Assembly: GCA_046536775.1 (NCBI GenBank)
Contig: JAWDMD010000002.1
Location: 1 to 32,000 of the forward strand
Length of the DNA stretch: 32,000 nucleotides
Origin: Candidatus Nanopusillus sp.
GTDB taxonomy: Archaea; Nanobdellota; Nanobdellia; Nanobdellales; Nanobdellaceae
Direction of reading: 5' to 3'
Shown here: positions 2,979-31,198 of the stretch, piece after piece
Layout of the letters: each line of letters starts with the position of its first letter
How positions within the stretch are numbered: position 1 is the first letter of the stretch
Notes under the pieces: model-generated
Told to the model about the DNA's origin: nothing
The model's database searches: none
Seen by the model: the letters and a program-made list of their open reading frames with translations, nothing else
Translations under genes and position numbers: made by a program

Positions 2979-3051
2979 AGCCCCGTCGTCTAGTGGTCTA
3001 GGATTCAGGGTTTTGGTCCCTGAGACCGGGGTTCGAATCCCCGCGGGGCTA
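2979..3051 (+). tRNA. tRNA-Gln (anticodon UUG)
   Basis: Hand-folded 73-nt cloverleaf. Acceptor AGCCCCG/CGGGGCT with the A1-U72 pair typical of archaeal tRNA-Gln. Anticodon stem CAGGG/CCCTG, loop TTTTGGT. T arm CGGGG-TTCGAAT-CCCCG. CCA not encoded. GC-rich island in AT-rich DNA. Confidence 0.9.
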
Positions 3052-3292
3052 CTTTTAATTGAGATAATATGGTTCCTCTAATTTTGTATCAAGAATATAA
3101 ATATTTAAAGATTAAATAAAAGATTTTAATTATTGTTTCAACAATTTTTGATCCAAAATTTTAATAAATTTTGTAAGAGCTAAAGAGAATATAAATACAA
3201 TAATTATAATAATTAGATGAATCATTTTATATTATTTAAATCCAACTTTTATAGAGGAATATAAAAATAAAAATATTTTAATGATCTTTTTT

Positions 3293-5172: not shown

Positions 5173-6615
5173 ATGGATATAAAGCTAAGAAAAATATCTG
5201 AAAATATATATGAAATACCCCAAGAAAAAGGAATGAATGTTCCGGTTAGAGTATATGCAAATGACAAGTTAATAGAAAAGATGAAAGAAGATAAAACATT
5301 AATACAAGGAAAGAATGTCGCTAGTTTGCCAGGAATACAAAAATATTCTATTGTAATGCCAGATGGACATGAAGGTTATGGATTTCCAGTTGGTGGAGTT
5401 GCAGCATTTGATATAAATGAAGGGATAATCTCTCCAGGTGGAATAGGATATGATATAAATTGCGGAGTAAGATTACTAAGAACAAATTTAAAATATGAAG
5501 AGATAAAACCAAAATTAAAAGAAATTGTGAATGAAATATTTAGAAATGTACCTGCAGGAGTTGGAGAAACCGGAAAAGTTGTTTTATCTGCCGGACAATT
5601 TAAAGATGCAGTAGAAGAGGGTTTAGAATGGAGTTATAGAGAAGGTTATGCATGGAAAGAGGATTTGGAACATGTAGAATCTTATGGTAGATTAAAAGAT
5701 GCTTCAATAGAACATATATCAGATTTATCAATTAGGAGAGGAATGGATCAATTAGGAACTATAGGGTCTGGAAACCATTTCATTGAAATACAAGTAGTTG
5801 ATAAAATATTTGATAAGGATATAGCAAACAAATTGGGAATATTTGAAGAAGGACAAATAACAATATTAATTCATACAGGTTCTAGGGGTTTTGGACATCA
5901 AATTGCATCAGATTATATAGATTTAGGATTGAAAAAATATAGGGAAGAAATAAATAAATTACCAGATAAAGAATTGGTATATTTACCCTTTCAATCTGAT
6001 GACGGAAATAATTATTGGAAATCAATGAGTGCTGCAGCAAATTTTGCATGGAATAATAGACAAATAATAACATATTTTATTAGAAAATCATTCCAAAAAG
6101 TATACAATCATTCAATAGAAGATATTGGATTAAATATTGTATATGATGTTGCTCATAATATTGCAAAAATTGAAGAATATAAAGTTGATGATAAAAGGAA
6201 AAAATTAATTGTTCATAGAAAAGGTGCTACTAGAGCATTTCCATCAGGTTCGGAAGAATTGGTTGAGGATTATAGAAAAATTGGACAACCAGTATTAATC
6301 CCAGGTTCAATGGGAACAGCATCATATGTATTGATAGGATCTGAAAAATCCATGGAATTATCTTTTGGATCTTCTGCGCATGGTGCTGGAAGAAATATGT
6401 CGAGAGCTGCTGCGAAAAGGTCATTTAATTATAATGAAATAATTAAAAATTTAGAAGAAAGAGGAATTTATGTAAAATCTACAACAAAAGAAGGTGTAGT
6501 TGAAGAGGTACCTGAAGCCTATAAAAATGTTGATGAAGTTGTAAAAGTAACTGATGAATTGGGTATTTCTAAAATTGTTGTAAGATTAAGACCAATAGCA
6601 GTTATAAAAGGTTAA
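5173..6615 (+). CDS. rtcB: RNA-splicing ligase RtcB (3'-phosphate/5'-hydroxyl RNA ligase)
   Basis: Full-length 480 aa carrying the conserved RtcB blocks MPDGHEGYGFPVGGV, GGIGYDINCGVRLL, GSGNHFIE, HTGSRGFGHQ, PGSMGTASYVL and SSAHGAGR. No intein insertion. Confidence 0.95.
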   Translation: MDIKLRKISENIYEIPQEKGMNVPVRVYANDKLIEKMKEDKTLIQGKNVASLPGIQKYSIVMPDGHEGYGFPVGGVAAFDINEGIISPGGIGYDINCGVRLLRTNLKYEEIKPKLKEIVNEIFRNVPAGVGETGKVVLSAGQFKDAVEEGLEWSYREGYAWKEDLEHVESYGRLKDASIEHISDLSIRRGMDQLGTIGSGNHFIEIQVVDKIFDKDIANKLGIFEEGQITILIHTGSRGFGHQIASDYIDLGLKKYREEINKLPDKELVYLPFQSDDGNNYWKSMSAAANFAWNNRQIITYFIRKSFQKVYNHSIEDIGLNIVYDVAHNIAKIEEYKVDDKRKKLIVHRKGATRAFPSGSEELVEDYRKIGQPVLIPGSMGTASYVLIGSEKSMELSFGSSAHGAGRNMSRAAAKRSFNYNEIIKNLEERGIYVKSTTKEGVVEEVPEAYKNVDEVVKVTDELGISKIVVRLRPIAVIKG

Positions 6616-9411: not shown

Positions 9412-10575
9412 ATGGATTTAAATAAAGATGTAGATCTAATCGATGAGTTTTTCTCGTATGTAAAAAATTTTAATAATAGAATATTCGAAATAAAAAGAAG
9501 TTTGAATAATTTTGTAAATAGAGAAGAATTTAATAATCAATTAAAAGCTTTGAAAGAAGAATTAGAAAATGTAGAAAAAATATTAGATAATTATAAAGAA
9601 ATATTAAATGAAGATTTACTCAATAAAGTAAGATATTTAAATGATTTAAAATTAAAAATAGATGTATTAGAAAACAATCAGAAAAACTTTATTGATTATT
9701 CTACTATAGTAAACATAAAATCAAAAATAAATAAATTAGAACTTGATATAAATTCTCTAAGTAATAAAATAACAAAATATGAAGATGCTATAAATAGTAT
9801 AAAAGAATTAAGTAATAAAATAAAAGATTCGACAGATAGATTAAGTAAAATAGAAGATTCATATACAAATATTAATGATTTTAATGATCTGAAAGAAAAA
9901 GTGGCTAATTTAACGAATTTAGTATCTAAGACAATAGACAATTTATCTAAAGATTTATTACAATATAATAAAATATCTGAAATGATAAATGAGATAAAAG
10001 AAAAAGATCTATATAATATTAATAGTAAATTGGAAGAGATAGAAAAGAAACATGAAGAAAAATATTCTGAAATTAGTAATAAAATAAGCAATATGAACTA
10101 TCTATTGCAATTAACAAATGATGATATTAAAAATATAAAACAATTTAAAACTTATGAAGAATTATATAACAAATATATAAACTTCGAAAATAGATTAAAT
10201 AGCATATATGCATTATTTGAGGAATTAAATAATCTGGTTGTAGATTTAAGATCTAAAGTAAATGAAATGGACAAAATTGAAGAAATTAATGAAAAATATA
10301 ATAAATTGGAAGAAAGTTTAAACAATATTAGGGAAGAAATAAGAAATGTAAAAACAGAATTGTACGATTCTAAAGATATACTAGAATCTGTATTATCCGA
10401 TTATGAAAATTTAATGAATAAAGTAAAGAAAATAGAGAACTTTATTGATTTAGCTAACCTTGAGTATATAATAAATGAAGTAGAAAAAATAAAAATAATG
10501 GAAAATGATATAGAAAATATAAAGAGATTATTATTATCTAAAAATATAAAAGAAGAAGAGGAATATAAGTACTAA
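9412..10575 (+). CDS. long coiled-coil protein, unknown function
   Basis: 387 aa, almost entirely predicted coiled coil. No TM segment and no NTPase motif. The antisense ORF 9696..10091 is a low-complexity mirror of it. Confidence 0.55.
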   Translation: MDLNKDVDLIDEFFSYVKNFNNRIFEIKRSLNNFVNREEFNNQLKALKEELENVEKILDNYKEILNEDLLNKVRYLNDLKLKIDVLENNQKNFIDYSTIVNIKSKINKLELDINSLSNKITKYEDAINSIKELSNKIKDSTDRLSKIEDSYTNINDFNDLKEKVANLTNLVSKTIDNLSKDLLQYNKISEMINEIKEKDLYNINSKLEEIEKKHEEKYSEISNKISNMNYLLQLTNDDIKNIKQFKTYEELYNKYINFENRLNSIYALFEELNNLVVDLRSKVNEMDKIEEINEKYNKLEESLNNIREEIRNVKTELYDSKDILESVLSDYENLMNKVKKIENFIDLANLEYIINEVEKIKIMENDIENIKRLLLSKNIKEEEEYKY

Positions 10576-10928
10576 TAGACTTTTTTAATTTTATCTATTA
10601 TATCTGCAAGCCTACTTATTATATCATATAATTTTATTAGTTTTTCTTTTTCTATATTTTTATGATCTAATCCTTTTTCTATATCTAAATAATCAAATAC
10701 TTTATCAGATTTAACAATATATAATTCATCAAAGAAATTTCTTCCTTCCAATTCTTTTAATATTGATATAAATTTTAACGATTCATTAAGATTGTTTAAA
10801 TCTATTTCTTTTTTTAATACTAAAGTTATTTTTCCACTCTCCCCCTTTTCTAATTTTTTAATTTTATTATCAAGTTGTAATAATTTCCTTCTTTTAGCAT
10901 ATTCTGGGGATGGTATTATTAATGGCAT
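10572..10928 (-). CDS. hypothetical protein
   Basis: 118-aa ORF, convergent with the coiled-coil gene and overlapping it by 4 nt. No recognisable motif. Preceded on its own strand by the C/D box sRNA. Confidence 0.45.
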   Translation of the reverse strand: MPLIIPSPEYAKRRKLLQLDNKIKKLEKGESGKITLVLKKEIDLNNLNESLKFISILKELEGRNFFDELYIVKSDKVFDYLDIEKGLDHKNIEKEKLIKLYDIISRLADIIDKIKKVY

Positions 10929-10958
10929 AATAAATATTAATATATGGAAATTTAAAAA

Positions 10959-11008
10959 TCAGCAGTTACTCCTCTCATCATTAATTCAGATTGTGTCCAC
11001 GTCATCAT
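10959..11008 (-). ncRNA. C/D box sRNA (2'-O-methylation guide)
   Basis: The minus strand reads ATGATGA(C)-CGTGGACACAAT-CTGA(D')-ATTA-ATGATGA(C')-GAGGAGTAACTG-CTGA(D). Boxes are perfect and both guides are 12 nt, giving a 50-nt core, which is the canonical archaeal architecture. It sits in the divergent intergenic spacer. Confidence 0.85.
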
Positions 11009-11046
11009 AATATTTATTTATAAGAATTGTATTTTTTATTTTTTAT

Positions 11047-12030
11047 ATGAATGAAATGCTTCCTTTATTGGTATTTGATATAATAATATTGGCATATTCT
11101 TCATACCAGGATATAAAATATAAATCTGTAGATGATATAATAATATATATTTTATTGATATTTAATGTATTCTATTTTTTATATTTAATTGTCCAAAATA
11201 TTTATCCAGGAAATTTTATATTTTCATATTATATTCTCTTATTTTTCACTTTATTATATCTATTTAGGTTGCTGGCCATTGGAGATCTATTTATTTTCTT
11301 TTCAATATTCTTTCTATTATCCTTCTTTTCTCTATATAAGATGTTATTATTTTTATTTTATTTAGTATTATTTGGATTTATATTCCACAATATAGAGGCT
11401 ATTAAGGCATATAAAGAAAATAGAAAAAGATATTATATTTTCATTTTTAATATTATCTCAATATTGGTTTCTATATATTTTATCAACCTTTTTGTTTTAT
11501 ATTTTGATATTTATTATCTATTAATTTCTCTAATTTTCATATATATTCCATATTTTCTATTTAGATATATATCAAAGGATTTAGAGGAAAAATTAACGTT
11601 TATGAGAAATGTAAATGAATTGGTTGAAGGAGATTGGATAGAAGATGGAATAGAAATTAATAGTATAAAGAAAGAAGATAAAGAAATATTAGTTAAATAT
11701 TTCGATATTTATGAAAATGAGAATAAATACGTATTAAAATTTAAGAATAATAATAAATTAATAAATTCTCTTATTATCTTAATAATCTCAGTTTTACCAT
11801 TAATATTTTATTTTTTAAATGAAATTTTCTTTTATTATTCTATGCCATTTATCATAATATTTTATCATATATTTCAAAATAAACTGTTTATTGGAAGATT
11901 TGGTCTTTCAAAAGAAGAAATTAATATATTAAAGAAATTGGGAGAATATAATGATATAAAAGTAAAAGTAAAAGAAGGAGCACCATTTATTCCTCCAATA
12001 TTCCTTTCTTTCATATTCTTACTAATATGA
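11047..12030 (+). CDS. A24-family prepilin/preflagellin (class III signal) peptidase, FlaK/PibD-like
   Basis: Polytopic membrane protein. Asp22 sits in SSYQDIKYK and Asp80 in the AIGD (GxGD-type) motif, a spacing like the two catalytic Asp of FlaK/PibD. The C-terminal GAPFIPPIF block is typical of the family. A soluble insertion lies between TM segments, as in FlaK. Confidence 0.7.
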   Translation: MNEMLPLLVFDIIILAYSSYQDIKYKSVDDIIIYILLIFNVFYFLYLIVQNIYPGNFIFSYYILLFFTLLYLFRLLAIGDLFIFFSIFFLLSFFSLYKMLLFLFYLVLFGFIFHNIEAIKAYKENRKRYYIFIFNIISILVSIYFINLFVLYFDIYYLLISLIFIYIPYFLFRYISKDLEEKLTFMRNVNELVEGDWIEDGIEINSIKKEDKEILVKYFDIYENENKYVLKFKNNNKLINSLIILIISVLPLIFYFLNEIFFYYSMPFIIIFYHIFQNKLFIGRFGLSKEEINILKKLGEYNDIKVKVKEGAPFIPPIFLSFIFLLI

Positions 12031-19072: not shown

Positions 19073-20845
19073 ATGGATTACATTCCTTTATATATAAAAA
19101 ATTTATGTTTTAATTGTAATAAATTAATTTCTTCCTATAGACTTTCAAATGGTCTTCCTTGTGAAAATGATTTAGATGATAACGAAATATTAGAATTATT
19201 AAATATAAAGGATGAAAACACCTTTAGAGAGATTTTATACAAAAGATTATCTGAAAAGGGGAAATTAAGAGATTATTCAAATATTTATAATTTATATAAA
19301 GAAGTTAATAAATTTTCTGAATTCTTTAAAAAAATATTGAATTCTAATCCGTGGAAAGTACAAATAATGTGGTTTGAGAGATTATATAAAAATAATAGTT
19401 TTTCTATGATAGCACCAACAGGTGTTGGAAAATCAACATTTATTATAGTTTCATCTATTTACTTCTCTAGTGAATATAATAAAAAAATACTAATAATATC
19501 ACCTACAAGATTGCTTGTAAAACAATTTAGTGATTTATTTGATAAATTTATAAATAGTCTAAATCTAAATATAAAGTTTATAGCATATTATGGTGGTAAT
19601 AAAAAAGAAATTAAAGAAAAAATAAAGAATGAGGAATTTAATATATTAATTATTTCAAATCAATTCTTAACTAAAAATTTTGAAATATTAAAAGGTAAAA
19701 AATTCGATATTGCTTTTGTAGATGATGTAGATTCTTTTTTTAAAGGATCAAAAAATATCGAGAAACTGTTTATTTTAATTGGTTATAGTGAGGATGATAT
19801 AAATGTTGCTAAAAAAGTAATAGATCTAAAATTGACTGGTAAATTAGACTTTAATAGTGATTTATATAAAAGATTTTTAGAAATTAAAAATAAAAACCAT
19901 GGGATAGTTGTTTTATCTTCTGCTACTGGTAGTTTAAGGGGAAAAAGAGTCGGATTATATAGAGAATTGGCAAACTTTACTATTGGAACTGGAAGTTCAA
20001 AGATTAGAAATGTTGTAGATGTATATTATTTTCCCAAGAGAGATATAAAAGAGGAATTATTGGATCTTTTAAAAGAGTTAGAAGATGGCGCATTAATATT
20101 TGTTCCGAAAGAAAAAGGAATAGAATATATGAAAGAAGTTTACGATTATCTAATATCAAATAATATAAAAGTTGGTTTAATATATTCAAAAACAAAAACA
20201 AAAGAAATTGAGAGTATATTAAATGATTTTTATGAAAGAAAAATAAATTTCCTAATTAGTATTACAGATCCATATGGAGTATTAACTAGAGGAATTAATA
20301 TGCCCGAAAGAATAAAATATGCAATATTCTTAGGAATACCAAAGATAAAAATAAATATTAAAAATCTTGAGAGAAATATAATGAATATAATTATTCTATC
20401 TAATTTAATTATACCATATATATCTGATATAGAAAAAAATAGAATAATGAAGACTCTTACAAGATTAAGAAAAAATATGAAAAAATTATCTGCAGGAGAT
20501 CTAAAATTAATTTCTGATTTTTTAAATGAAAATAAGGTGAAGTTGGTCGGATATTTAAAATCCTTTACCGATGATATATTAACATTATATAATATTTTGA
20601 AAATTTATATTGATAGGACAGAAATATTGGATAAATTAAAGGAAAATCCAGATGTTTCTATAGAAATAGATACAAATAAAAATATATATCTAAATATTGT
20701 AGATCTTAAAACATATTTACAGGCTTCCGGAAGAACTTCTAGATTATACTCTGGAGGGATATCAAAAGGATTATCTATAGTTTTTGTAGATGATCAAAAA
20801 TTATTAAAATCGCTTGATATGAAATTAAGATATTATTTACTTTAG
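19073..20845 (+). CDS. rgy: reverse gyrase, helicase-like N-terminal half only (split reverse gyrase)
   Basis: N-terminal Zn finger (CFNC...C). SF2 motifs APTGVGKST (I), VDDVD (II), SSATGS (III) and QASGRTSR (VI). The ORF stops about 45 aa after motif VI. No Toprim/topoisomerase IA domain follows on either strand in this window. Confidence 0.85.
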   Translation: MDYIPLYIKNLCFNCNKLISSYRLSNGLPCENDLDDNEILELLNIKDENTFREILYKRLSEKGKLRDYSNIYNLYKEVNKFSEFFKKILNSNPWKVQIMWFERLYKNNSFSMIAPTGVGKSTFIIVSSIYFSSEYNKKILIISPTRLLVKQFSDLFDKFINSLNLNIKFIAYYGGNKKEIKEKIKNEEFNILIISNQFLTKNFEILKGKKFDIAFVDDVDSFFKGSKNIEKLFILIGYSEDDINVAKKVIDLKLTGKLDFNSDLYKRFLEIKNKNHGIVVLSSATGSLRGKRVGLYRELANFTIGTGSSKIRNVVDVYYFPKRDIKEELLDLLKELEDGALIFVPKEKGIEYMKEVYDYLISNNIKVGLIYSKTKTKEIESILNDFYERKINFLISITDPYGVLTRGINMPERIKYAIFLGIPKIKINIKNLERNIMNIIILSNLIIPYISDIEKNRIMKTLTRLRKNMKKLSAGDLKLISDFLNENKVKLVGYLKSFTDDILTLYNILKIYIDRTEILDKLKENPDVSIEIDTNKNIYLNIVDLKTYLQASGRTSRLYSGGISKGLSIVFVDDQKLLKSLDMKLRYYLL

Positions 20846-20992: not shown

Positions 20993-21021
20993 AATATAAG
21001 TAGTTGGTTAATATCTTATAT

Positions 21022-23334
21022 ATGGATATATCGAATGATTATAATAAACTATTATGTAAAATAATCAGAAATAATCATAGAGGAATTGTTGTTTTATCTG
21101 GCAAAGATTATTTTGATACTCTATCTAAATTTTTAAAAATATATTATGAAAAAATTAAGAACTTTAAAGATAATATAAAGATTTTATATGTCTCTGAAGA
21201 TTTTAATGGTGATTATTTATATAGATTTCAAAAATTAAAAGAAAAGATAGATTTTTTGGATATAGAAAAAATTAAATATAAAGATTCTAAAAAAATTTTG
21301 GGAAAGACATACGATATATTAATTTTAGATATGTATAAGTCTCTAACTCCAGATTATATAGGTAGAATTATTGAAACTTTATCTGGAATTGGTATAGCAT
21401 TCTTCTTAATTAAAGATTTTGAACATTTTGAGGAAAATTATACAACTTTTCACGAGCATTTATTAACCCCTCCATATAAGCTAGAAGATGTAAAAAAATA
21501 TTTTGAACATAGATTCAAAAATAAATTAATCCAATATGATAATATAATTATATATGACATAGAGAAGGGATTAATAAAGGGAATAAATGATGAATGTGTG
21601 TTAGAAGAAGCATACCCACCGGGAAGAAAAAAGATATTATTGTCAGATAATAGAAAGTTTTCAGATAGAATATATAAATTATGCTTAACTCAAGATCAGG
21701 CAAATGTTCTTTCTCTTTTAGAAAATTTATTAAATGATGAAAAATCAATATATCTAATTATTGCAGATAGAGGAAGGGGAAAGAGTGCCTCTCTTGGTTT
21801 AGCAATTGCCGGAATTTCCGAGATATTATTAAATAGTAAAAAGGTATATGATATTGGTATAACATCACCAGAATTTAATAATGTAGAAACGTTATTTGAA
21901 TTCTTAAAGTTGGGATTAAATAGAAATAATATAAAATATAAAGAAATAAGTGAGAAAAAAATAGTAATAAACAATAAGATATACATTGAATATAGAAAAC
22001 CATCTGAAATATTTAGAAAAAAATATGATATATTATTTGTTGATGAAGCTGCAGGTATTGGTATAAATATATTATTGGATTATATCAAAAAATATGATAA
22101 AATTATATTTTCATCTACAATTCATGGATATGAAGGAGCTGGTAGATCTTTTTCTGTCAAATTTTTAAAATATCTAAATTCTCTGAAAGATTTTAAGATA
22201 TATAGATATAATATGGTTGAGCCAATTAGATATAATGAACAAGATCCAATTGAAAAATGGCTATATGATACACTATTATTAGATTCTGAATCTTCAGAAA
22301 TTAATGAGAGTGATAAAGAGTTAATAAAAAATAAAGATGTAAGATTTTATAAAATACCAATGAAAGAATGGTTTTATAATGATGATCCAAAATTAAAGAA
22401 TTTTGTTGGAATATATATATTAGCACATTATCAAAATAGACCGAATGATGTTGTAATGCTTGCTGATGCACCACATCATGATGCTTTTGTTTTAGAATTA
22501 TCAAATGGAAAGATTGTAAATGGAATACATGTTGCATATGAAGGTGGCATAGATGATGATACAATCAATAAAATGTTAAAAGATTATAAACCAAAAGGAA
22601 ATATAATACCAGATATAATAGTAAAACATTATAGAATAAAAGAATTTGCTAAATTAAAAGGATTAAGGGTTGTTAGAATTGCTACAATACCAGAAATTCA
22701 GGGGATGGGTTTGGGATCTGTATCATTGGATAAACTATGTAATTGGGCTAAAGAGAATAATTATGATTGGATAGGTTCTAGTTTTGGTATAACTTACGAA
22801 TTATTGAATTTCTGGCAAAAAAATAATTTTGCATTAGTTCATTTATCTCCAGAAAAAAACAATGTTTCTGGAGAGTATTCTGGTATAGTAATAAAACCCC
22901 TAAACGAAGAATCAGAAAAAATAGTTAAAAAGTTAAATTATGAATTTAGGTGGAGATTAATAAATCAAATATCTGATGTATATTTTGATTTATCTCCAGA
23001 ATTAATATTAAAAATGTTAGAGACTCCATATGCATTTAAACCACATTATAAATTAAATTTGACAGATAATCAGGTAGAAAGACTGGAAGGTTATTTATCC
23101 TCACCTATGACATATGAAGCTGCTGCAGATGTTGCAAAATTATTATATATCTATTATTTATTATATACAGAAAAGGATAAACCAAAAATAGATAAAGAAG
23201 AATTGTTGATAGGAAAATTTTTATTATCATGGAGTTTTGGGAAAATATCAAATTATTTTAAAATTGAGAAGTTTGGGGCTAGAAGGTTGATAAAGAAAGA
23301 TATAAAAATAATATATAATTGGCTATTTAAGTGA
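21022..23334 (+). CDS. tmcA: tRNA(Met) cytidine acetyltransferase TmcA (NAT10/Kre33 homologue)
   Basis: Helicase-type P-loop ADRGRGKSA, the HGYEGAGRSF block and GNAT motif RIATIPEIQGMGLGS. The ORF track opens at a TTG at 21004; the first ATG, at 21022, is the more likely start. Confidence 0.85.
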   Translation: MDISNDYNKLLCKIIRNNHRGIVVLSGKDYFDTLSKFLKIYYEKIKNFKDNIKILYVSEDFNGDYLYRFQKLKEKIDFLDIEKIKYKDSKKILGKTYDILILDMYKSLTPDYIGRIIETLSGIGIAFFLIKDFEHFEENYTTFHEHLLTPPYKLEDVKKYFEHRFKNKLIQYDNIIIYDIEKGLIKGINDECVLEEAYPPGRKKILLSDNRKFSDRIYKLCLTQDQANVLSLLENLLNDEKSIYLIIADRGRGKSASLGLAIAGISEILLNSKKVYDIGITSPEFNNVETLFEFLKLGLNRNNIKYKEISEKKIVINNKIYIEYRKPSEIFRKKYDILFVDEAAGIGINILLDYIKKYDKIIFSSTIHGYEGAGRSFSVKFLKYLNSLKDFKIYRYNMVEPIRYNEQDPIEKWLYDTLLLDSESSEINESDKELIKNKDVRFYKIPMKEWFYNDDPKLKNFVGIYILAHYQNRPNDVVMLADAPHHDAFVLELSNGKIVNGIHVAYEGGIDDDTINKMLKDYKPKGNIIPDIIVKHYRIKEFAKLKGLRVVRIATIPEIQGMGLGSVSLDKLCNWAKENNYDWIGSSFGITYELLNFWQKNNFALVHLSPEKNNVSGEYSGIVIKPLNEESEKIVKKLNYEFRWRLINQISDVYFDLSPELILKMLETPYAFKPHYKLNLTDNQVERLEGYLSSPMTYEAAADVAKLLYIYYLLYTEKDKPKIDKEELLIGKFLLSWSFGKISNYFKIEKFGARRLIKKDIKIIYNWLFK

Positions 23335-24772: not shown

Positions 24773-24847
24773 GCCCCTGTCGTCTAGTCTGGTCTAGGAT
24801 ATAGGGTTTTCGTCCCTATGACCCGGGTTCAAATCCCGGCGGGGGCA
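24773..24847 (+). tRNA. tRNA-Glu (anticodon UUC)
   Basis: 75-nt cloverleaf. Acceptor GCCCCTG/CGGGGGC with a U6-G67 wobble pair. Anticodon stem TAGGG/CCCTA, loop TTTTCGT. T arm CCGGG-TTCAAAT-CCCGG. CCA not encoded. Confidence 0.9.
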
Positions 24848-24904: not shown

Positions 24905-25498
24905 ATGAAAGGTCAAGGAGGATCTGGTTTTTCAGCAATGGTATTATTTATAGCAGCAGCATTGACAGCAGCAATAGCAGCATTAGTAATCATTGGAGCA
25001 ACAACTAGTGCACAAGGACATGCAGCAGCTGCAGCACAACAAACAGTACAAACATCTGGTACAACTGTAGAAGTTGTAAGGGTAGAAGGTATAAACGTTA
25101 ATACAACAGCACAAACAGTACAAGAGTTCTTAGTATATACAAGATTAGCACCAGGATCACAGCCAATATTATTCAATCAAACAGCAGTAATATTCTATTC
25201 TCCAGCTGGTAGAGAAATATTTGCATATGGAGGGGCTGTAGCAAATTCTTCATTAGTAACAGGATATACAGGATATTATTATATTGATCAACATGATTCA
25301 GTAGATAATTCAGGATTATTATACAATGGAGTATTAGGACCAAATGATTTAGCAGCATTATTAGTATATGCTAATGTATCATTAGCAACATCACAAACAT
25401 GGGAGTTCTCTATAATACCACCAAATGGACAACCATATGATTTATCTGGTGTAACACCGGCAGCAATGATATATCCAACAGTAATATTATATGGCTAA
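24905..25498 (+). CDS. archaellin (archaeal flagellin, FlaB-type) with class III signal peptide
   Basis: MKGQ-GGSGFSAMVLFIAAALTAAIAALVIIG is a short basic leader with a KG/Q cleavage-type motif, followed by the hydrophobic archaellin N-domain. The downstream block LVYTRLAPGSQPILFNQT matches the conserved archaellin 'aGS.pi.l' region. Confidence 0.75.
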   Translation: MKGQGGSGFSAMVLFIAAALTAAIAALVIIGATTSAQGHAAAAAQQTVQTSGTTVEVVRVEGINVNTTAQTVQEFLVYTRLAPGSQPILFNQTAVIFYSPAGREIFAYGGAVANSSLVTGYTGYYYIDQHDSVDNSGLLYNGVLGPNDLAALLVYANVSLATSQTWEFSIIPPNGQPYDLSGVTPAAMIYPTVILYG

Positions 25499-26147: not shown

Positions 26148-27257
26148 ATGTTATGTAAGCATTTTCCAAAGTGTGGCGGTTGTCAAATTCAAAATTTATA
26201 TTATAATGAACAAATAGAATATAAAATAAAGAAATTTATTGATATATTTAAGAGGGAACCAGATGAAGTTATAAAATCACCGAAAATAATTTATTATAGA
26301 AATAGAATGGATTATGCTGTTGGTCCTAATTATGAAGTGGGATTAAAGGAATATGGAAAATGGTATTCATATGTAAATGTTGAAGAATGTTTTTTACAAT
26401 CTCAAGAATCAAATATAATAAGAAATAAATTTAGAGAATTTATAATAAACAAAAATTTAAAACCATGGGATACAAAAAAATATACAGGTTTTGTAAGATA
26501 TATTGTAATAAGAGAAGGAAAACTTACAAATGAGAGAATGATAAACATAATAACTTATAAAACAGATAATTTTGAATATTATAAAAATATATTTTTAGAA
26601 TTTTATAGTCAAATTAAAGATCATGTTAATTCATTTTATTGGTCAATAAATGATACAATTTCAGATGTTTCATATGGAAATATAAATTATTTATTATTTG
26701 GGGAAAAATATATTAAAGAAAAAGCCTTAGATAATTTTTATTATATTTCATCAAATAGTTTTTATCAGCCAAATAGCTATACAGCAGAAATATTATTAAA
26801 ATATGTAAGAGAATTTACAAATCCAAATGAAAAAGATGTAATCTATGATTTATATTCTGGTTCTGGTTTTTATGCAATAGAAATTGGGAAATATTCTAAT
26901 TATGTATATGCCGTAGATAATAATAATGGAAATTTTGAAATGTTTAATTTAAATAAAGAGATAAATAATATAAAAAGCGTGAGATTTTTATTATCTAATG
27001 TAGAAAATTTAGAAAAAATAAATGCAGATAAAATAATTATAGATCCGCCAAGGCCAGGAATAAATAAAAAAGTAATAAGAAAAATATTGGAATCTAATGC
27101 AAGGAAAATCATTTATGTTTCTTGTTATCCAGAAACACAAAAGAGAGATATAGATATTTTAATAAATAAAGGAAATTATAAATTGGAAAATATGATTTTG
27201 GTCGATCAATTTCCACATACATATCATATGGAGACAATTGCTTTATTAAATAAATAA
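26148..27257 (+). CDS. RumA/TrmA-family RNA (uracil-5)-methyltransferase
   Basis: N-terminal Cys cluster C-x5-C-x2-C (CKHFPKCGGC), SAM motif I DLYSGSGFYAIE, motif IV IIDPPRPG and the catalytic-Cys block YVSCYPETQKRD. No N-terminal TRAM domain precedes the cluster. Confidence 0.85.
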   Translation: MLCKHFPKCGGCQIQNLYYNEQIEYKIKKFIDIFKREPDEVIKSPKIIYYRNRMDYAVGPNYEVGLKEYGKWYSYVNVEECFLQSQESNIIRNKFREFIINKNLKPWDTKKYTGFVRYIVIREGKLTNERMINIITYKTDNFEYYKNIFLEFYSQIKDHVNSFYWSINDTISDVSYGNINYLLFGEKYIKEKALDNFYYISSNSFYQPNSYTAEILLKYVREFTNPNEKDVIYDLYSGSGFYAIEIGKYSNYVYAVDNNNGNFEMFNLNKEINNIKSVRFLLSNVENLEKINADKIIIDPPRPGINKKVIRKILESNARKIIYVSCYPETQKRDIDILINKGNYKLENMILVDQFPHTYHMETIALLNK

Positions 27258-27304: not shown

Positions 27305-28156
27305 ATGGTAAGGGCACAGTTTGGTTTGTCAACATTAATTATATTAATAGCAATAATAGTAACGGCAGCAGTAGCGGCTGGTGTAATAATATATACAGCA
27401 AGTTCTCTCCAATCAAAAGCACTACAAACAGGTGCACAAGCTGAGCAAAGAATAACAACAGGTATGCAAATTACACAAGTATTTGGATATCAATATGATC
27501 CATCAAGTGGCCAATTAAATAATTATTTACAGCAAATAACCGCTTTAGGACCGGTTGTATCATTAATGCCAGGTTCTAATCCAATTAATTTTGAATATGT
27601 AAGTACTTTAATTACAGATAGCAATGGAGATGTATATTCATATGCACCTTCACAATATGAGCCTACAGCAATATATGGTGTACTGCAAGGAGGAAGCTTT
27701 ATAATAACAGGATTTATGTTTAATGATCAGGTAAATGTATTAAATGTAACAATAAACAATTCACAAGAATGTTCTGCACTAAATAATCTTACAAATCAAT
27801 ATATATACACAAACTTTACATATATAAATGGAACTTTAGTTTCATGTATAATAGGATTAAATTCTTCAATAATTGGATATCCATTGAGTATAAATCAAGT
27901 ATTCCAAATATTGCAATCAATGAATGAAGCCGGAATTCAAAACCCATATGCAGTAATCGGGTTATCTGTGAGTCAGGAAAGTGTATATTTAACAACTGGA
28001 GAATTATATGAGATAATATATTATCTATCTAATGGATTATCAACAAACGAAAACTATAATATACAAATAACACCAGTAAATGGATATACATCTCAATATG
28101 GTGGAGCTATACCAGCAGTCTTATCCCAATCAGTAGTTTCTTTGGGAGGAAGTTAA
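27305..28156 (+). CDS. archaellin (archaeal flagellin, FlaB-type) with class III signal peptide
   Basis: MVRAQ-FGLSTLIILIAIIVTAAVAAGVIIY is a canonical archaellin N terminus. It is followed by LQSKALQTGAQAEQRITTGMQITQVFG and the LMPGSNPINF block. Confidence 0.8.
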   Translation: MVRAQFGLSTLIILIAIIVTAAVAAGVIIYTASSLQSKALQTGAQAEQRITTGMQITQVFGYQYDPSSGQLNNYLQQITALGPVVSLMPGSNPINFEYVSTLITDSNGDVYSYAPSQYEPTAIYGVLQGGSFIITGFMFNDQVNVLNVTINNSQECSALNNLTNQYIYTNFTYINGTLVSCIIGLNSSIIGYPLSINQVFQILQSMNEAGIQNPYAVIGLSVSQESVYLTTGELYEIIYYLSNGLSTNENYNIQITPVNGYTSQYGGAIPAVLSQSVVSLGGS

Positions 28157-28191
28157 AGATTTTAACTTTTTTAATTATCTTATAATTTATT

Positions 28192-28264
28192 GCCGCCGTA
28201 GCTCAGCTGGTAGAGCGGTGGACCTGTAATCCACAGGTCGTGGGTTCAAGCCCCACCGGCGGCA
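28192..28264 (+). tRNA. tRNA-Thr (anticodon UGU), with C at position 33
   Basis: 73-nt cloverleaf. Acceptor GCCGCCG/CGGCGGC, D arm GCTC-AGCTGGTA-GAGC, anticodon stem GTGGA/TCCAC with loop CCTGTAA, T arm GTGGG-TTCAAGC-CCCAC. CCA not encoded. A T-run follows. Confidence 0.85.
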
Positions 28265-28296
28265 TTTTTATATATTTTTTACAATTTAAGATTTAG

Positions 28297-28725
28297 ATGA
28301 AAAGAGTATTATATAAAGATAAGGTATTTTTATCAGAAGATAAGATTTTATATTTCTATGAAGTTTTATATTTATTAGAAAAAAAAGAAATTGAAGTATA
28401 TGATGAGAAAAATAATAAATTAGATATAGATTATTTTCTAGAAGATGAAAAAATTGAGTTATATTATGATGTATATAAGTATTTTAGAGAAAAAAATTAT
28501 TATTTGGGTACGGGATTAAAATTTGGTGGTATATTTAGAATATACGAAGATATCGAAGAACATTCAAAATGGGTTGCTATTCCAATAAATATTAATGAAA
28601 AAATAGATATATATGATTTTTTAGCAAAAAATAGAGTTGCACATAGTACTAGAAAAAGAATTTTATATTGTGTAAAGGATAATAATAATTATAGGTTTTT
28701 AGAAATAAGATGGAAAAAATTGTAG
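28297..28725 (+). CDS. endA: tRNA-splicing endonuclease, catalytic (alpha) subunit
   Basis: GLKFGGIFRIYEDIEEHSKWV and RVAHSTRKR carry the Tyr/His/Lys catalytic triad pattern of EndA. At 142 aa it is a single endonuclease unit. Confidence 0.8.
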   Translation: MKRVLYKDKVFLSEDKILYFYEVLYLLEKKEIEVYDEKNNKLDIDYFLEDEKIELYYDVYKYFREKNYYLGTGLKFGGIFRIYEDIEEHSKWVAIPININEKIDIYDFLAKNRVAHSTRKRILYCVKDNNNYRFLEIRWKKL

Positions 28726-31127: not shown

Positions 31128-31198
31128 GCCTCCGTGGTGTAGTGGCAGCATACGGGACTGTCGATCCCGCGACCCGGGTTCAAATCCCGGCGGGGGCG
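31128..31198 (+). tRNA. tRNA-Asp (anticodon GUC)
   Basis: 71-nt cloverleaf. Acceptor GCCTCCG/CGGGGGC with a U4-G69 wobble pair. Anticodon stem CGGGA/TCCCG, loop CTGTCGA. T arm CCGGG-TTCAAAT-CCCGG. It starts on the base immediately after the TAA of the upstream CDS. CCA not encoded. Confidence 0.9.

Follow-up and report, generated by a model that had tools for sequence, protein, structure and literature searches.

In this study, we identified in the spacer between two divergent genes a 50-nt element which very probably encodes an archaeal box C/D sRNA with two guides, an orthologue of Nanoarchaeum equitans sR14 (Neq sR14), predicted from sequence comparison to guide the methylation of two sites of the 23S rRNA. 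The window, which is the whole 32-kb stretch of DNA analysed here, comes from a Nanopusillus-type nanoarchaeote of the Nanopusillaceae. An initial annotation of the window had read the element as a C/D sRNA from its boxes, and this reading is supported by the boxes, the spacing, the conservation, the homology to Neq sR14 and the co-varying N+5 targets alike.

The minus strand at 10959-11008 reads directly as ATGATGA-CGTGGACACAAT-CTGA-ATTA-ATGATGA-GAGGAGTAACTG-CTGA, so that the boxes C, C', D and D', the two 12-nt guides and the 4-nt loop are exactly as the initial annotation had given them. The element, its parts and its neighbours are as follows.

10959..11008, minus strand: C/D box sRNA core of 50 nt, read directly and kept at the syntenic position in loci L001-L010, L136, L138 and L139
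11002..11008, minus strand: box C, AUGAUGA; UGAUGA is fixed in the Nanopusillaceae orthologues save L002 (UGACGA)
10990..11001, minus strand: D' guide CGUGGACACAAU; the A at 10994 is its fifth nucleotide upstream of D'
10986..10989, minus strand: box D', CUGA, unchanged in every orthologue including Neq sR14
10982..10985, minus strand: D'-C' loop, AUUA; 3-4 nt across orthologues, variable in sequence and length
10975..10981, minus strand: box C', AUGAUGA; UGAUGA is unchanged in every orthologue including Neq sR14
10963..10974, minus strand: D guide GAGGAGUAACUG; position 5 is the A at 10967 and position 4 the A at 10966
10959..10962, minus strand: box D, CUGA, unchanged in Nanopusillaceae; CAGA in Neq sR14
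10572..10928, minus strand: conserved 118-aa protein with no Pfam match, the downstream neighbour, with a gene call of the same length in L136 and L138
11047..12030, plus strand: 327-aa membrane protein with a weak Peptidase_A24 match, the divergent neighbour and our synteny anchor

Both guide spacers are exactly 12 nt long in the window and in every Nanopusillaceae orthologue. The terminal boxes C (AUGAUGA) and D (CUGA) could form the tandem sheared G.A pairs of the k-turn of an archaeal C/D sRNA, and the internal D'/C' pair with its short loop (CUGA-AUUA-AUGAUGA) has the form of an archaeal k-loop. The element has a G+C content of 40% versus 23.6% for the whole window and 14-24% in the adjacent 50-nt windows, which bears out the earlier remark that it is richer in G+C than its surroundings. 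No terminal stem can form in the window sRNA, and the self-structure of the RNA alone is not significant (z = +0.76); the ends of N. equitans sRNAs are likewise reported to be unpaired (Randau 2012, PMC3491384). The mature sRNA probably extends a few nucleotides beyond the 50-nt core at both ends.

With guides of 10-13 nt, loops of 2-9 nt and up to two box mismatches allowed, no second C/D unit was detected in the 32-kb window, and the claim that the window holds a single complete unit thus survives a relaxed scan. By chance, a window would be expected to hold 1.3e-8 units of the strict pattern and 2e-6 of the loosest; not a single C/D unit turned up in 2000 dinucleotide shuffles, and block shuffles gave 0.017 relaxed matches per window. 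It is hardly conceivable, with such expectations, that the boxes are chance motifs. Nor does the plus-strand ORF 10792..11010 (72 codons), which overlaps the element and could be taken to account for it, offer more, as this ORF is mostly an antisense shadow of the 118-aa gene and is spurious, in line with what had been stated before. Moreover, the boxes are fixed across genomes in which the neighbouring protein is merely 50-60% identical. Nothing in the window except the tRNAs reached an Rfam gathering score. About twenty Rfam C/D families, mostly archaeal, align with the element end to end, all below gathering, with the top score for sR2 (24.1 bits, E = 0.0015, versus a gathering score of 42); such scores are expected because these families have only the boxes in common, and a sub-threshold profile of this kind is to be expected of a new guide family whose boxes are canonical. 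The exact guide 12-mers met only unrelated matches, such as primers, in the paper full texts searched, and no report of C/D sRNAs from Nanopusillus or Nanobsidianus was found in the literature searched.

With the A24-like membrane protein as synteny anchor, we obtained ten orthologous GTDB loci (L001-L010), all of them from Nanopusillaceae and including Candidatus Nanopusillus acidilobi, Ca. Nanobsidianus stetteri, several Nanopusillus MAGs and two deeper Nanopusillaceae MAGs. The element was found at the same syntenic position in 13 of 13 related loci, that is, in all ten GTDB loci as well as in L136 (an ENA contig 98% identical to the window), L138 (the complete genome of strain YN1) and L139. 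In the alignment, the D', C' and D boxes and the D-guide core GGAGUA(G/A)CU are fixed and box C shows the one variant of L002, while the loop, the guide ends and the flanks vary among orthologues. The neighbouring membrane protein is merely 50-61% identical in L009, L010 and YN1, and the conservation of the element is therefore selective.

The initial annotation had predicted the targets as full 12-nt complements of the guides and had proposed that the rRNA be searched for them, tying its reading to the presence of such sites. Sites for both guides are indeed present in Nanopusillus 23S rRNA, though not as full 12-nt complements: the actual pairing covers positions 2-10 of the D guide and 4-11 of the D' guide. 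During this search, metagenome contigs were scanned for GAAAAGYTACTCCGGGG, and two matches, L079 and L023, had an N. equitans-like context. L079 carries complete 23S and 16S genes within coding DNA of 20-28% G+C, and its FlaI is 93-99% identical to Nanopusillus and Nanobsidianus proteins; FlaI was used in turn as the synteny anchor for collecting 23S loci from named genomes.

The D guide is complementary through positions 2-10 to 23S AGUUACUCC in helix 74, where Nanopusillus 23S reads AG(C/U)UACUCC, with E. coli U2438 at +5. Against the 23S of L079, which is that of a relative, the window D guide forms nine consecutive Watson-Crick pairs at 2491-2499 with U2494 at +5, and nine consecutive pairs with the AGYUACUCC target are also formed in the same-genome comparisons of YN1 and N. 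stetteri AB-777_F03. The published prediction criterion is at least nine consecutive Watson-Crick pairs with a Watson-Crick pair at N+5, and the duplex of the D guide with a U-type 23S has this length; a 9-bp run spanning +5 anywhere in 16S and 23S was obtained for 119 of 3000 shuffled guides. Neq sR14 is tabulated as "23S U2712 / NP", and in the 23S alignment of the same study the N. equitans sequence GACGGAAAAGCUACUCCGGGGGUAACAG has N14 marked where the block begins (Dennis et al. 2015, PMC4644070). The alignment column U2712 corresponds to E. coli U2438, as derived from the alignment with the landmarks A2451, U2552 and U2584/U2585, and the site for the window D guide is thus the same as the published target of Neq sR14.

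As judged from the aligned sequences, guide and rRNA target change together across lineages. At the equivalent of E. coli 2437, a C or U in the rRNA faces a G or A at guide position 4. The rRNA has C in N. stetteri AB-777_F03 (whose assembly also provided sRNA locus L003), OBNano, YN1, L151 and L152, and the sRNAs from these C-type lineages all have G at guide position 4. It has U in a distinct Nanopusillus clade (L079, L141, L142 and L145-L147), and the guide has A in the window and L136 only, with G in all other genomes. The window and the U-type clade each differ by about 8-9% from all C-type or G-guide genomes and each have close kin at about 98% identity that form a clade of their own; the two are found in a common ENA sample series. 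We infer that the window belongs with the U-type 23S clade, a placement with which the divergence is consistent without being decisive; a C-type 23S in the window's genome would give an A.C mismatch adjoining the methylation site. The contig of L137 stops 16 nt before the D site.

The D' guide of the window is complementary through positions 4-11 to the A-loop sequence GUGUCCAC of helix 92, with E. coli U2552 at +5. U2552 is universally modified, its Um is one of the most conserved modifications of the ribosome, and the A-loop sequence UGUUC is near-universal. The best site for the D' guide is L079 23S 2604-2615 (GGGGUGUCCACC), comprising the 5' stem and the loop of helix 92, and its +5 nucleotide is the first of the A loop. 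The duplex of the window guide has eight Watson-Crick pairs, as its positions 1-3 are AAU and not CCC; a run of 8 bp, which is one base pair short of the 9-bp threshold, was matched by 530 of 3000 shuffled guides and is not significant by itself. The D' guide of L009 and YN1, UGUGGACACCCC, has 11 of 12 positions paired at the A loop, and for YN1 both partners of the duplex belong to one complete genome (AP031373.1), again with U2552 at +5; an 11-bp run was reached by 7 of 3000 shuffled guides. The D' pairing thus amounts to 11-12 bp in YN1, L009 and L010, which are deeper lineages, versus 8 bp in the window's clade. Of 5000 shuffles, only 5 brought the matches of both guides as close as 150 nt, as is the case for the two window guides. 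A published survey of seven archaea predicts an sRNA directed at U2552 in five of them (Dennis et al. 2015, PMC4644070). The A loops and the guides facing them are as follows.

A loop GUGUCCAC: Nanopusillus and YN1 (L079, L023, L131, L132, L137, L140, L143, L144, L151, L152); D' guide GUGGACAC
A loop GUGCUCAC: divergent Nanopusillaceae MAGs L133 and L134; D' guide of L010, GUGAGCAC, pairing at 12 of 12 positions, with the lineages of guide and rRNA linked presumptively
A loop GUGUUCAC: N. equitans; sR10 guide GUGAACAC

The short duplex of the window's clade leads to another reading of the same RNA, namely a functional C/D sRNA in which the D guide alone methylates, while the D' guide is decaying to an empty or chaperone-only state because U2552 is served by another, sR10-like sRNA or by a protein enzyme. 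We regard this as a serious possibility, albeit not the favoured one. The change of positions 1-3 from CCC to AAU in Nanopusillus proper, which leaves 8 bp and falls below the 9-bp criterion, agrees with such a decay, and N. equitans would represent its end state, since there the U2552 guide resides on sR10 and the D' guide of sR14, GAAAGCACAAU, has no predicted target. On the other hand, positions 4-11 are perfectly kept in all nine Nanopusillus-proper sequences of the alignment and hold a substitution that compensates the A-loop change U2555C, which argues for continued selection on the D' pairing. According to published work, weaker duplexes may suffice for double guides whose targets lie close together, and no second U2552 guide was seen within the roughly 8% of one genome that was covered. 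The 8-bp duplex in the window's lineage may still direct methylation. As a separate observation, the U2552 guide is intact on the sR14-type RNA in deep Nanopusillaceae and reduced to 8 bp in Nanopusillus proper, and in N. equitans it is absent from sR14 and present on sR10.

That the main targets are other RNAs (tRNA, 5S rRNA or mRNA), with the 23S matches being secondary, appears improbable. About a third of archaeal sRNAs have, according to published data, no rRNA targets and many pair with tRNAs, and the end CACAAU of the D' guide, which is common to N. equitans and Nanopusillus, is left unexplained by the A loop. However, tRNA targets were rejected for both guides, neither being complementary to any of the four tRNAs of the window, as had already been stated in the initial annotation; about 300 kb of Nanopusillus DNA offered no alternative target for the D' guide and no complementarity other than the antisense strand of the gene itself. 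The 23S sites, in addition, co-vary with the guides and agree with published assignments, and methylation of the 23S rRNA by both guides is the reading which we retain.

The spacer between the two divergent genes measures 118 nt, and the distances given earlier, 30 nt from the element to the ATG of ORF 10572..10928 (minus strand) and 38 nt to the ATG of 11047..12030 (plus strand), were reproduced. Three motifs of this spacer bear on transcription.

10948..10958, minus strand: UUUUUAAAUUU right after box D, kept in orthologues, a likely oligo-T terminator
11031..11039, minus strand: UAAAAAAUA, rich in A/T and TATA-like, which precedes box C by about 22-30 nt and was noted from its position only
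11017..11024, plus strand: TATA-like box TTTATAAG, 30 nt before the ATG of the peptidase-like gene, present in all orthologous spacers

The conserved T5 run lies immediately 3' of box D, and UUUUUAAAUUU, which contains it, is likely the oligo-T terminator of the sRNA. Together with the following AAA, the same run forms TTTAAA, which begins 28 nt before the ATG of the 118-aa ORF. In N. equitans, the box A rule has TTTAAA precede the transcription start by about 26-27 nt (Randau 2012, PMC3491384), and by this match the TTTAAA at 28 nt fits a box A and would imply a leaderless mRNA for the 118-aa ORF. UAAAAAAUA is a possible promoter or box A of the sRNA itself, a weak candidate in a spacer of 12-20% G+C. 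On the other strand, TTTATAAG reads as the conserved CTTATAAA that precedes box C; as a promoter of the sRNA this motif was rejected, since only about 11 nt separate it from box C, and its distance to the divergent peptidase-like gene makes it a better candidate for the TATA box of that gene. With this layout of terminator, box A and TATA-like box, the 118-nt spacer therefore appears to hold three overlapping transcription units.

The position in a spacer of divergent genes, where the flanking TATA-like motifs are also conserved, is what would be expected if the conserved block were a cis element, either an L7Ae-binding k-turn in the leader of the 118-aa gene or a part of the divergent promoters. 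L7Ae reportedly binds k-turns of mRNAs in archaea, as one study has it. Yet promoters need no two RUGAUGA/CUGA pairs at an exact 12-nt spacing, the variable parts of the block co-vary with 23S rRNA, the N. equitans homologue lies in another gene context (tRNA-Gly) and accumulates as a small RNA, and the T5 run follows directly upon box D. A cis role is accordingly very improbable, and a cis-regulatory element or a chance motif can be regarded as effectively excluded.

With the element taken as the gene of a double-guide sRNA, its mode of action can be proposed by analogy with characterised archaeal sRNPs. The sRNA would be transcribed as an RNA of about 50-60 nt, its C/D k-turn and C'/D' k-loop would bind L7Ae, and a Nop5 dimer would bridge both box pairs and bring two fibrillarins. 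Nascent 23S rRNA would then pair with each 12-nt guide, and its nucleotide opposite the fifth position of that guide, counted upstream from D or D', would be 2'-O-methylated by fibrillarin. Um at the U2438 equivalent (L079 2494), on the 3' strand of helix 74 where this leads into the peptidyl-transferase central loop, would come from the D guide, and Um at the U2552 equivalent in the A loop of helix 92 (L079 2608) from the D' guide. No L7Ae, Nop5 or fibrillarin gene is encoded in the 32-kb window; N. equitans has the RNP proteins NEQ125 and NEQ342 (Randau 2012, PMC3491384). The two 23S sites lie 114 nt apart in domain V, and helices 74 and 92 have to open for the two guides to pair; therefore, the RNP may hold this region of domain V open as a chaperone in ribosome assembly, a role that has been proposed for double guides in the literature (Dennis et al. 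2015, PMC4644070).

The A loops of these lineages are non-canonical (UGUCC/UGCUC versus UGUUC), and we tentatively suggest, as a speculative extension, that the U2552 guide tracks each of them by compensation while it migrates or decays between paralogues. If true, this would provide a small natural time series of the co-evolution of a guide with a critical rRNA loop, and of guide re-partitioning in shrinking genomes. The matched substitutions of guide and rRNA constitute direct comparative evidence for maintained RNA-guided methylation near the peptidyl-transferase centre in extremely reduced symbionts. The element also adds a predicted, unannotated functional RNA gene to the Nanopusillus and Nanobsidianus genomes and widens the family of Neq sR14 orthologues, in some lineages of which the sR14-type RNA carries a predicted Um2552 guide. 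Otherwise it is a textbook archaeal C/D sRNA of a known type, ordinary apart from its targets and their co-variation; new here are the two target assignments around the peptidyl-transferase centre, the co-variation including unusual A loops, and the hint of a re-partitioning between sR10 and sR14.

With reference to known systems, the Rfam families sR2 (RF01139), sR20 (RF01140), sR11 (RF01150) and snoPyro_CD (RF00095) align with the element at full length over boxes and spacing, but their guides are unrelated and their scores stay below gathering, so that the element is a member of none of them. Elsewhere, the same nucleotide, the first base of the A loop, is modified by enzymes that act alone or by snoRNPs of eukaryotes: bacteria and some archaea have the protein-only U2552 methyltransferase RlmE (FtsJ/RrmJ), and yeast employs snR52 and Spb1. 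In Methanococcus maripaludis, the D' guide ACGGAGUAGCUU of MmasR106 (Dennis 2015 supplement) has the core GGAGUAGCU in common with the window RNA and is, by our own reading, complementary to helix 74 (Mma AAGCUACCCCGG) with one internal A.C mismatch. This core sits at D' and not at D, and the other guide of MmasR106 is unrelated to that of the window; the likeness could be homologous or convergent.

The closest relative is Neq sR14 (GCTATATGAAGAGAAAGCACAATCTGAATAGTGATGAAAGGAGTAGCTGCAGAT), detected by 29,900 RNA-seq reads and listed as a C/D box sRNA for which no target was predicted in the study that reported it (Randau 2012 supplement, PMC3491384). By its sequence, the element is the Nanopusillus orthologue of this RNA: both have CACAAUCUGAAU..UGAUGAAAGGAGUAGCU in common, homology extends beyond the boxes, and the rRNA target, 23S U2712 or E. 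coli U2438, is the same. The genomic context is not shared, synteny being confined to Nanopusillaceae; the Neq sR14 gene lies between tRNA-Gly and NEQ370, and that of Nanopusillaceae between the 118-aa ORF and the A24-like protein. The two RNAs are alike in their near-identical D guides (AAGGAGUAGCUG versus AAGGAGUAGCUA, or GAGGAGUAACUG in the window), in the D' box, the C' box, the loop and the 3' end CACAAU of the D' guide, and in being compact, about 50 nt, without a terminal stem. In contrast to the window RNA, the terminal boxes of Neq sR14 are degenerate (AUGAAGA and CAGA) and its D' guide, which has no predicted target, is 11 nt long, whereas in the Nanopusillaceae RNA the boxes are perfect and the D' guide matches the A loop by complementarity.

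In N. equitans, the U2552 guide is carried by sR10 as the D' guide AGUGAACACCCU (Dennis et al. 2015, PMC4644070). The Nanopusillaceae RNA resembles Neq sR10 and sR7 of Sulfolobus acidocaldarius (assigned to 23S U2826 in the alignment of Dennis et al.) in having the D' core GUGxxCAC(CCC) across helix 92 and U2552 at +5, with the guide following the species' own A loop. Unlike in Nanopusillaceae, the D guide that accompanies the U2552 guide on sR10 targets U2880 (E. coli C2606); Nanopusillaceae, unlike N. equitans, combine a U2552 D' guide with an sR14-type D guide. The location of the U2552 guide on sR10 in the one and on an sR14-type RNA in the other suggests guide shuffling or differential decay between paralogous sR10/sR14-type sRNAs.

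In comparing the box C/D guide RNA gene of the window (10959-11008, minus strand) with its relatives, we observed that the end of the D' guide next to box D' (window 10990-10995, minus strand) reads CACAAU both in Nanopusillus proper and in sR14, its orthologue from Nanoarchaeum equitans. At the same D' guide end, CACCCC was found in strain YN1 and in two deeper Nanopusillaceae MAGs (L009 and L010), which are phylogenetic intermediates between Nanopusillus proper and N. equitans. The sharing of CACAAU requires either convergence or a second putative target bearing AUUGUG. Box C of the Nanopusillus-CON-C-r01 MAG (L002:9899-9975, minus strand) reads AUGACGA rather than AUGAUGA; the altered base is the U between both GA dinucleotides, a change that is probably tolerated in the k-turn.

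With regard to the D guide, the sRNA MmasR106 of the mesophile Methanococcus maripaludis has the D' guide ACGGAGUAGCUU (Dennis 2015, PMC4644070, supplement 1), which has the GGAGUAGCU core in common with the D guide. By our own reading of the sequences, this D' guide shows complementarity, broken by one A.C mismatch, to the same site in helix 74 of the 23S rRNA, hinting that methylation of the U2438 equivalent may be widespread in archaea.

The rRNA sites were located on L079, a metagenome contig with complete Nanopusillus-type 23S and 16S genes:
L079:1415-4350, plus strand, 23S rRNA gene
L079:4018-4029 (23S 2604-2615), A loop site
L079:10290-11783, minus strand, 16S rRNA gene
The A loop of the Nanopusillus 23S is a non-canonical UGUCC (E. 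coli U2555 to C), that of the divergent Nanopusillaceae MAGs (L133 and L134) is UGCUC (U2554 to C), and UGUUC is the A loop of N. equitans and most organisms. Helix 92 is closed by a G.A pair instead of C-G. The two rRNA genes are unlinked, lying on opposite strands about 6 kb apart, and FlaI, two T2SSF-like genes, ribosomal protein S19 and TGT stand between them. The order FlaI-23S-ProRS is kept from Nanopusillus out to relatives at 57% identity.

Transcription signals are packed very tightly around the sRNA (window 10948-10958, minus strand; 11017-11024, plus strand). The TTTAAA that would serve as box A for the 118-aa gene downstream, a presumably leaderless one, shares nucleotides with the predicted T-run terminator of the sRNA, and the predicted TATA box of the divergent gene sits between box C and the presumed sRNA promoter.

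RNA processing and modification genes, that of the PP-loop ATPase among them, are plentiful in the window, whose features include:
990-1910, PP-loop ATPase
2979-3052, 24773-24847, 28191-28265 and 31128-31198, four tRNA genes
5173-6615, RtcB ligase
19073-20845, plus strand, 590-aa ORF with reverse-gyrase zinc finger and DEAD/Helicase_C domains
21004-23334, NAT10/TmcA-type cytidine acetyltransferase
24905-25498 and 27305-28156, plus strand, two archaellin (Arch_flagellin) genes
26148-27257, tRNA (U5) methyltransferase-like protein
28297-28725, tRNA-splicing endonuclease catalytic subunit
The G+C content of the tRNA genes is 59-69%, against 23.6% for the genome, and that of the sRNA is 40%; G+C content alone flags the structural RNAs here, the sRNA included, which is a typical trait of an A+T-rich hyperthermophile. 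Taken jointly, the archaellin genes and the FlaI and T2SSF genes adjoining the 23S in L079 suggest that this nanoarchaeote may possess an archaellum or pilus system. The topoisomerase domain is absent from the 590-aa ORF, which, judged from its domains, resembles the helicase part of a reverse gyrase divided in two. Such a split reverse gyrase occurs in N. equitans, where its gene is flanked by C/D sRNAs (PMC3491384).
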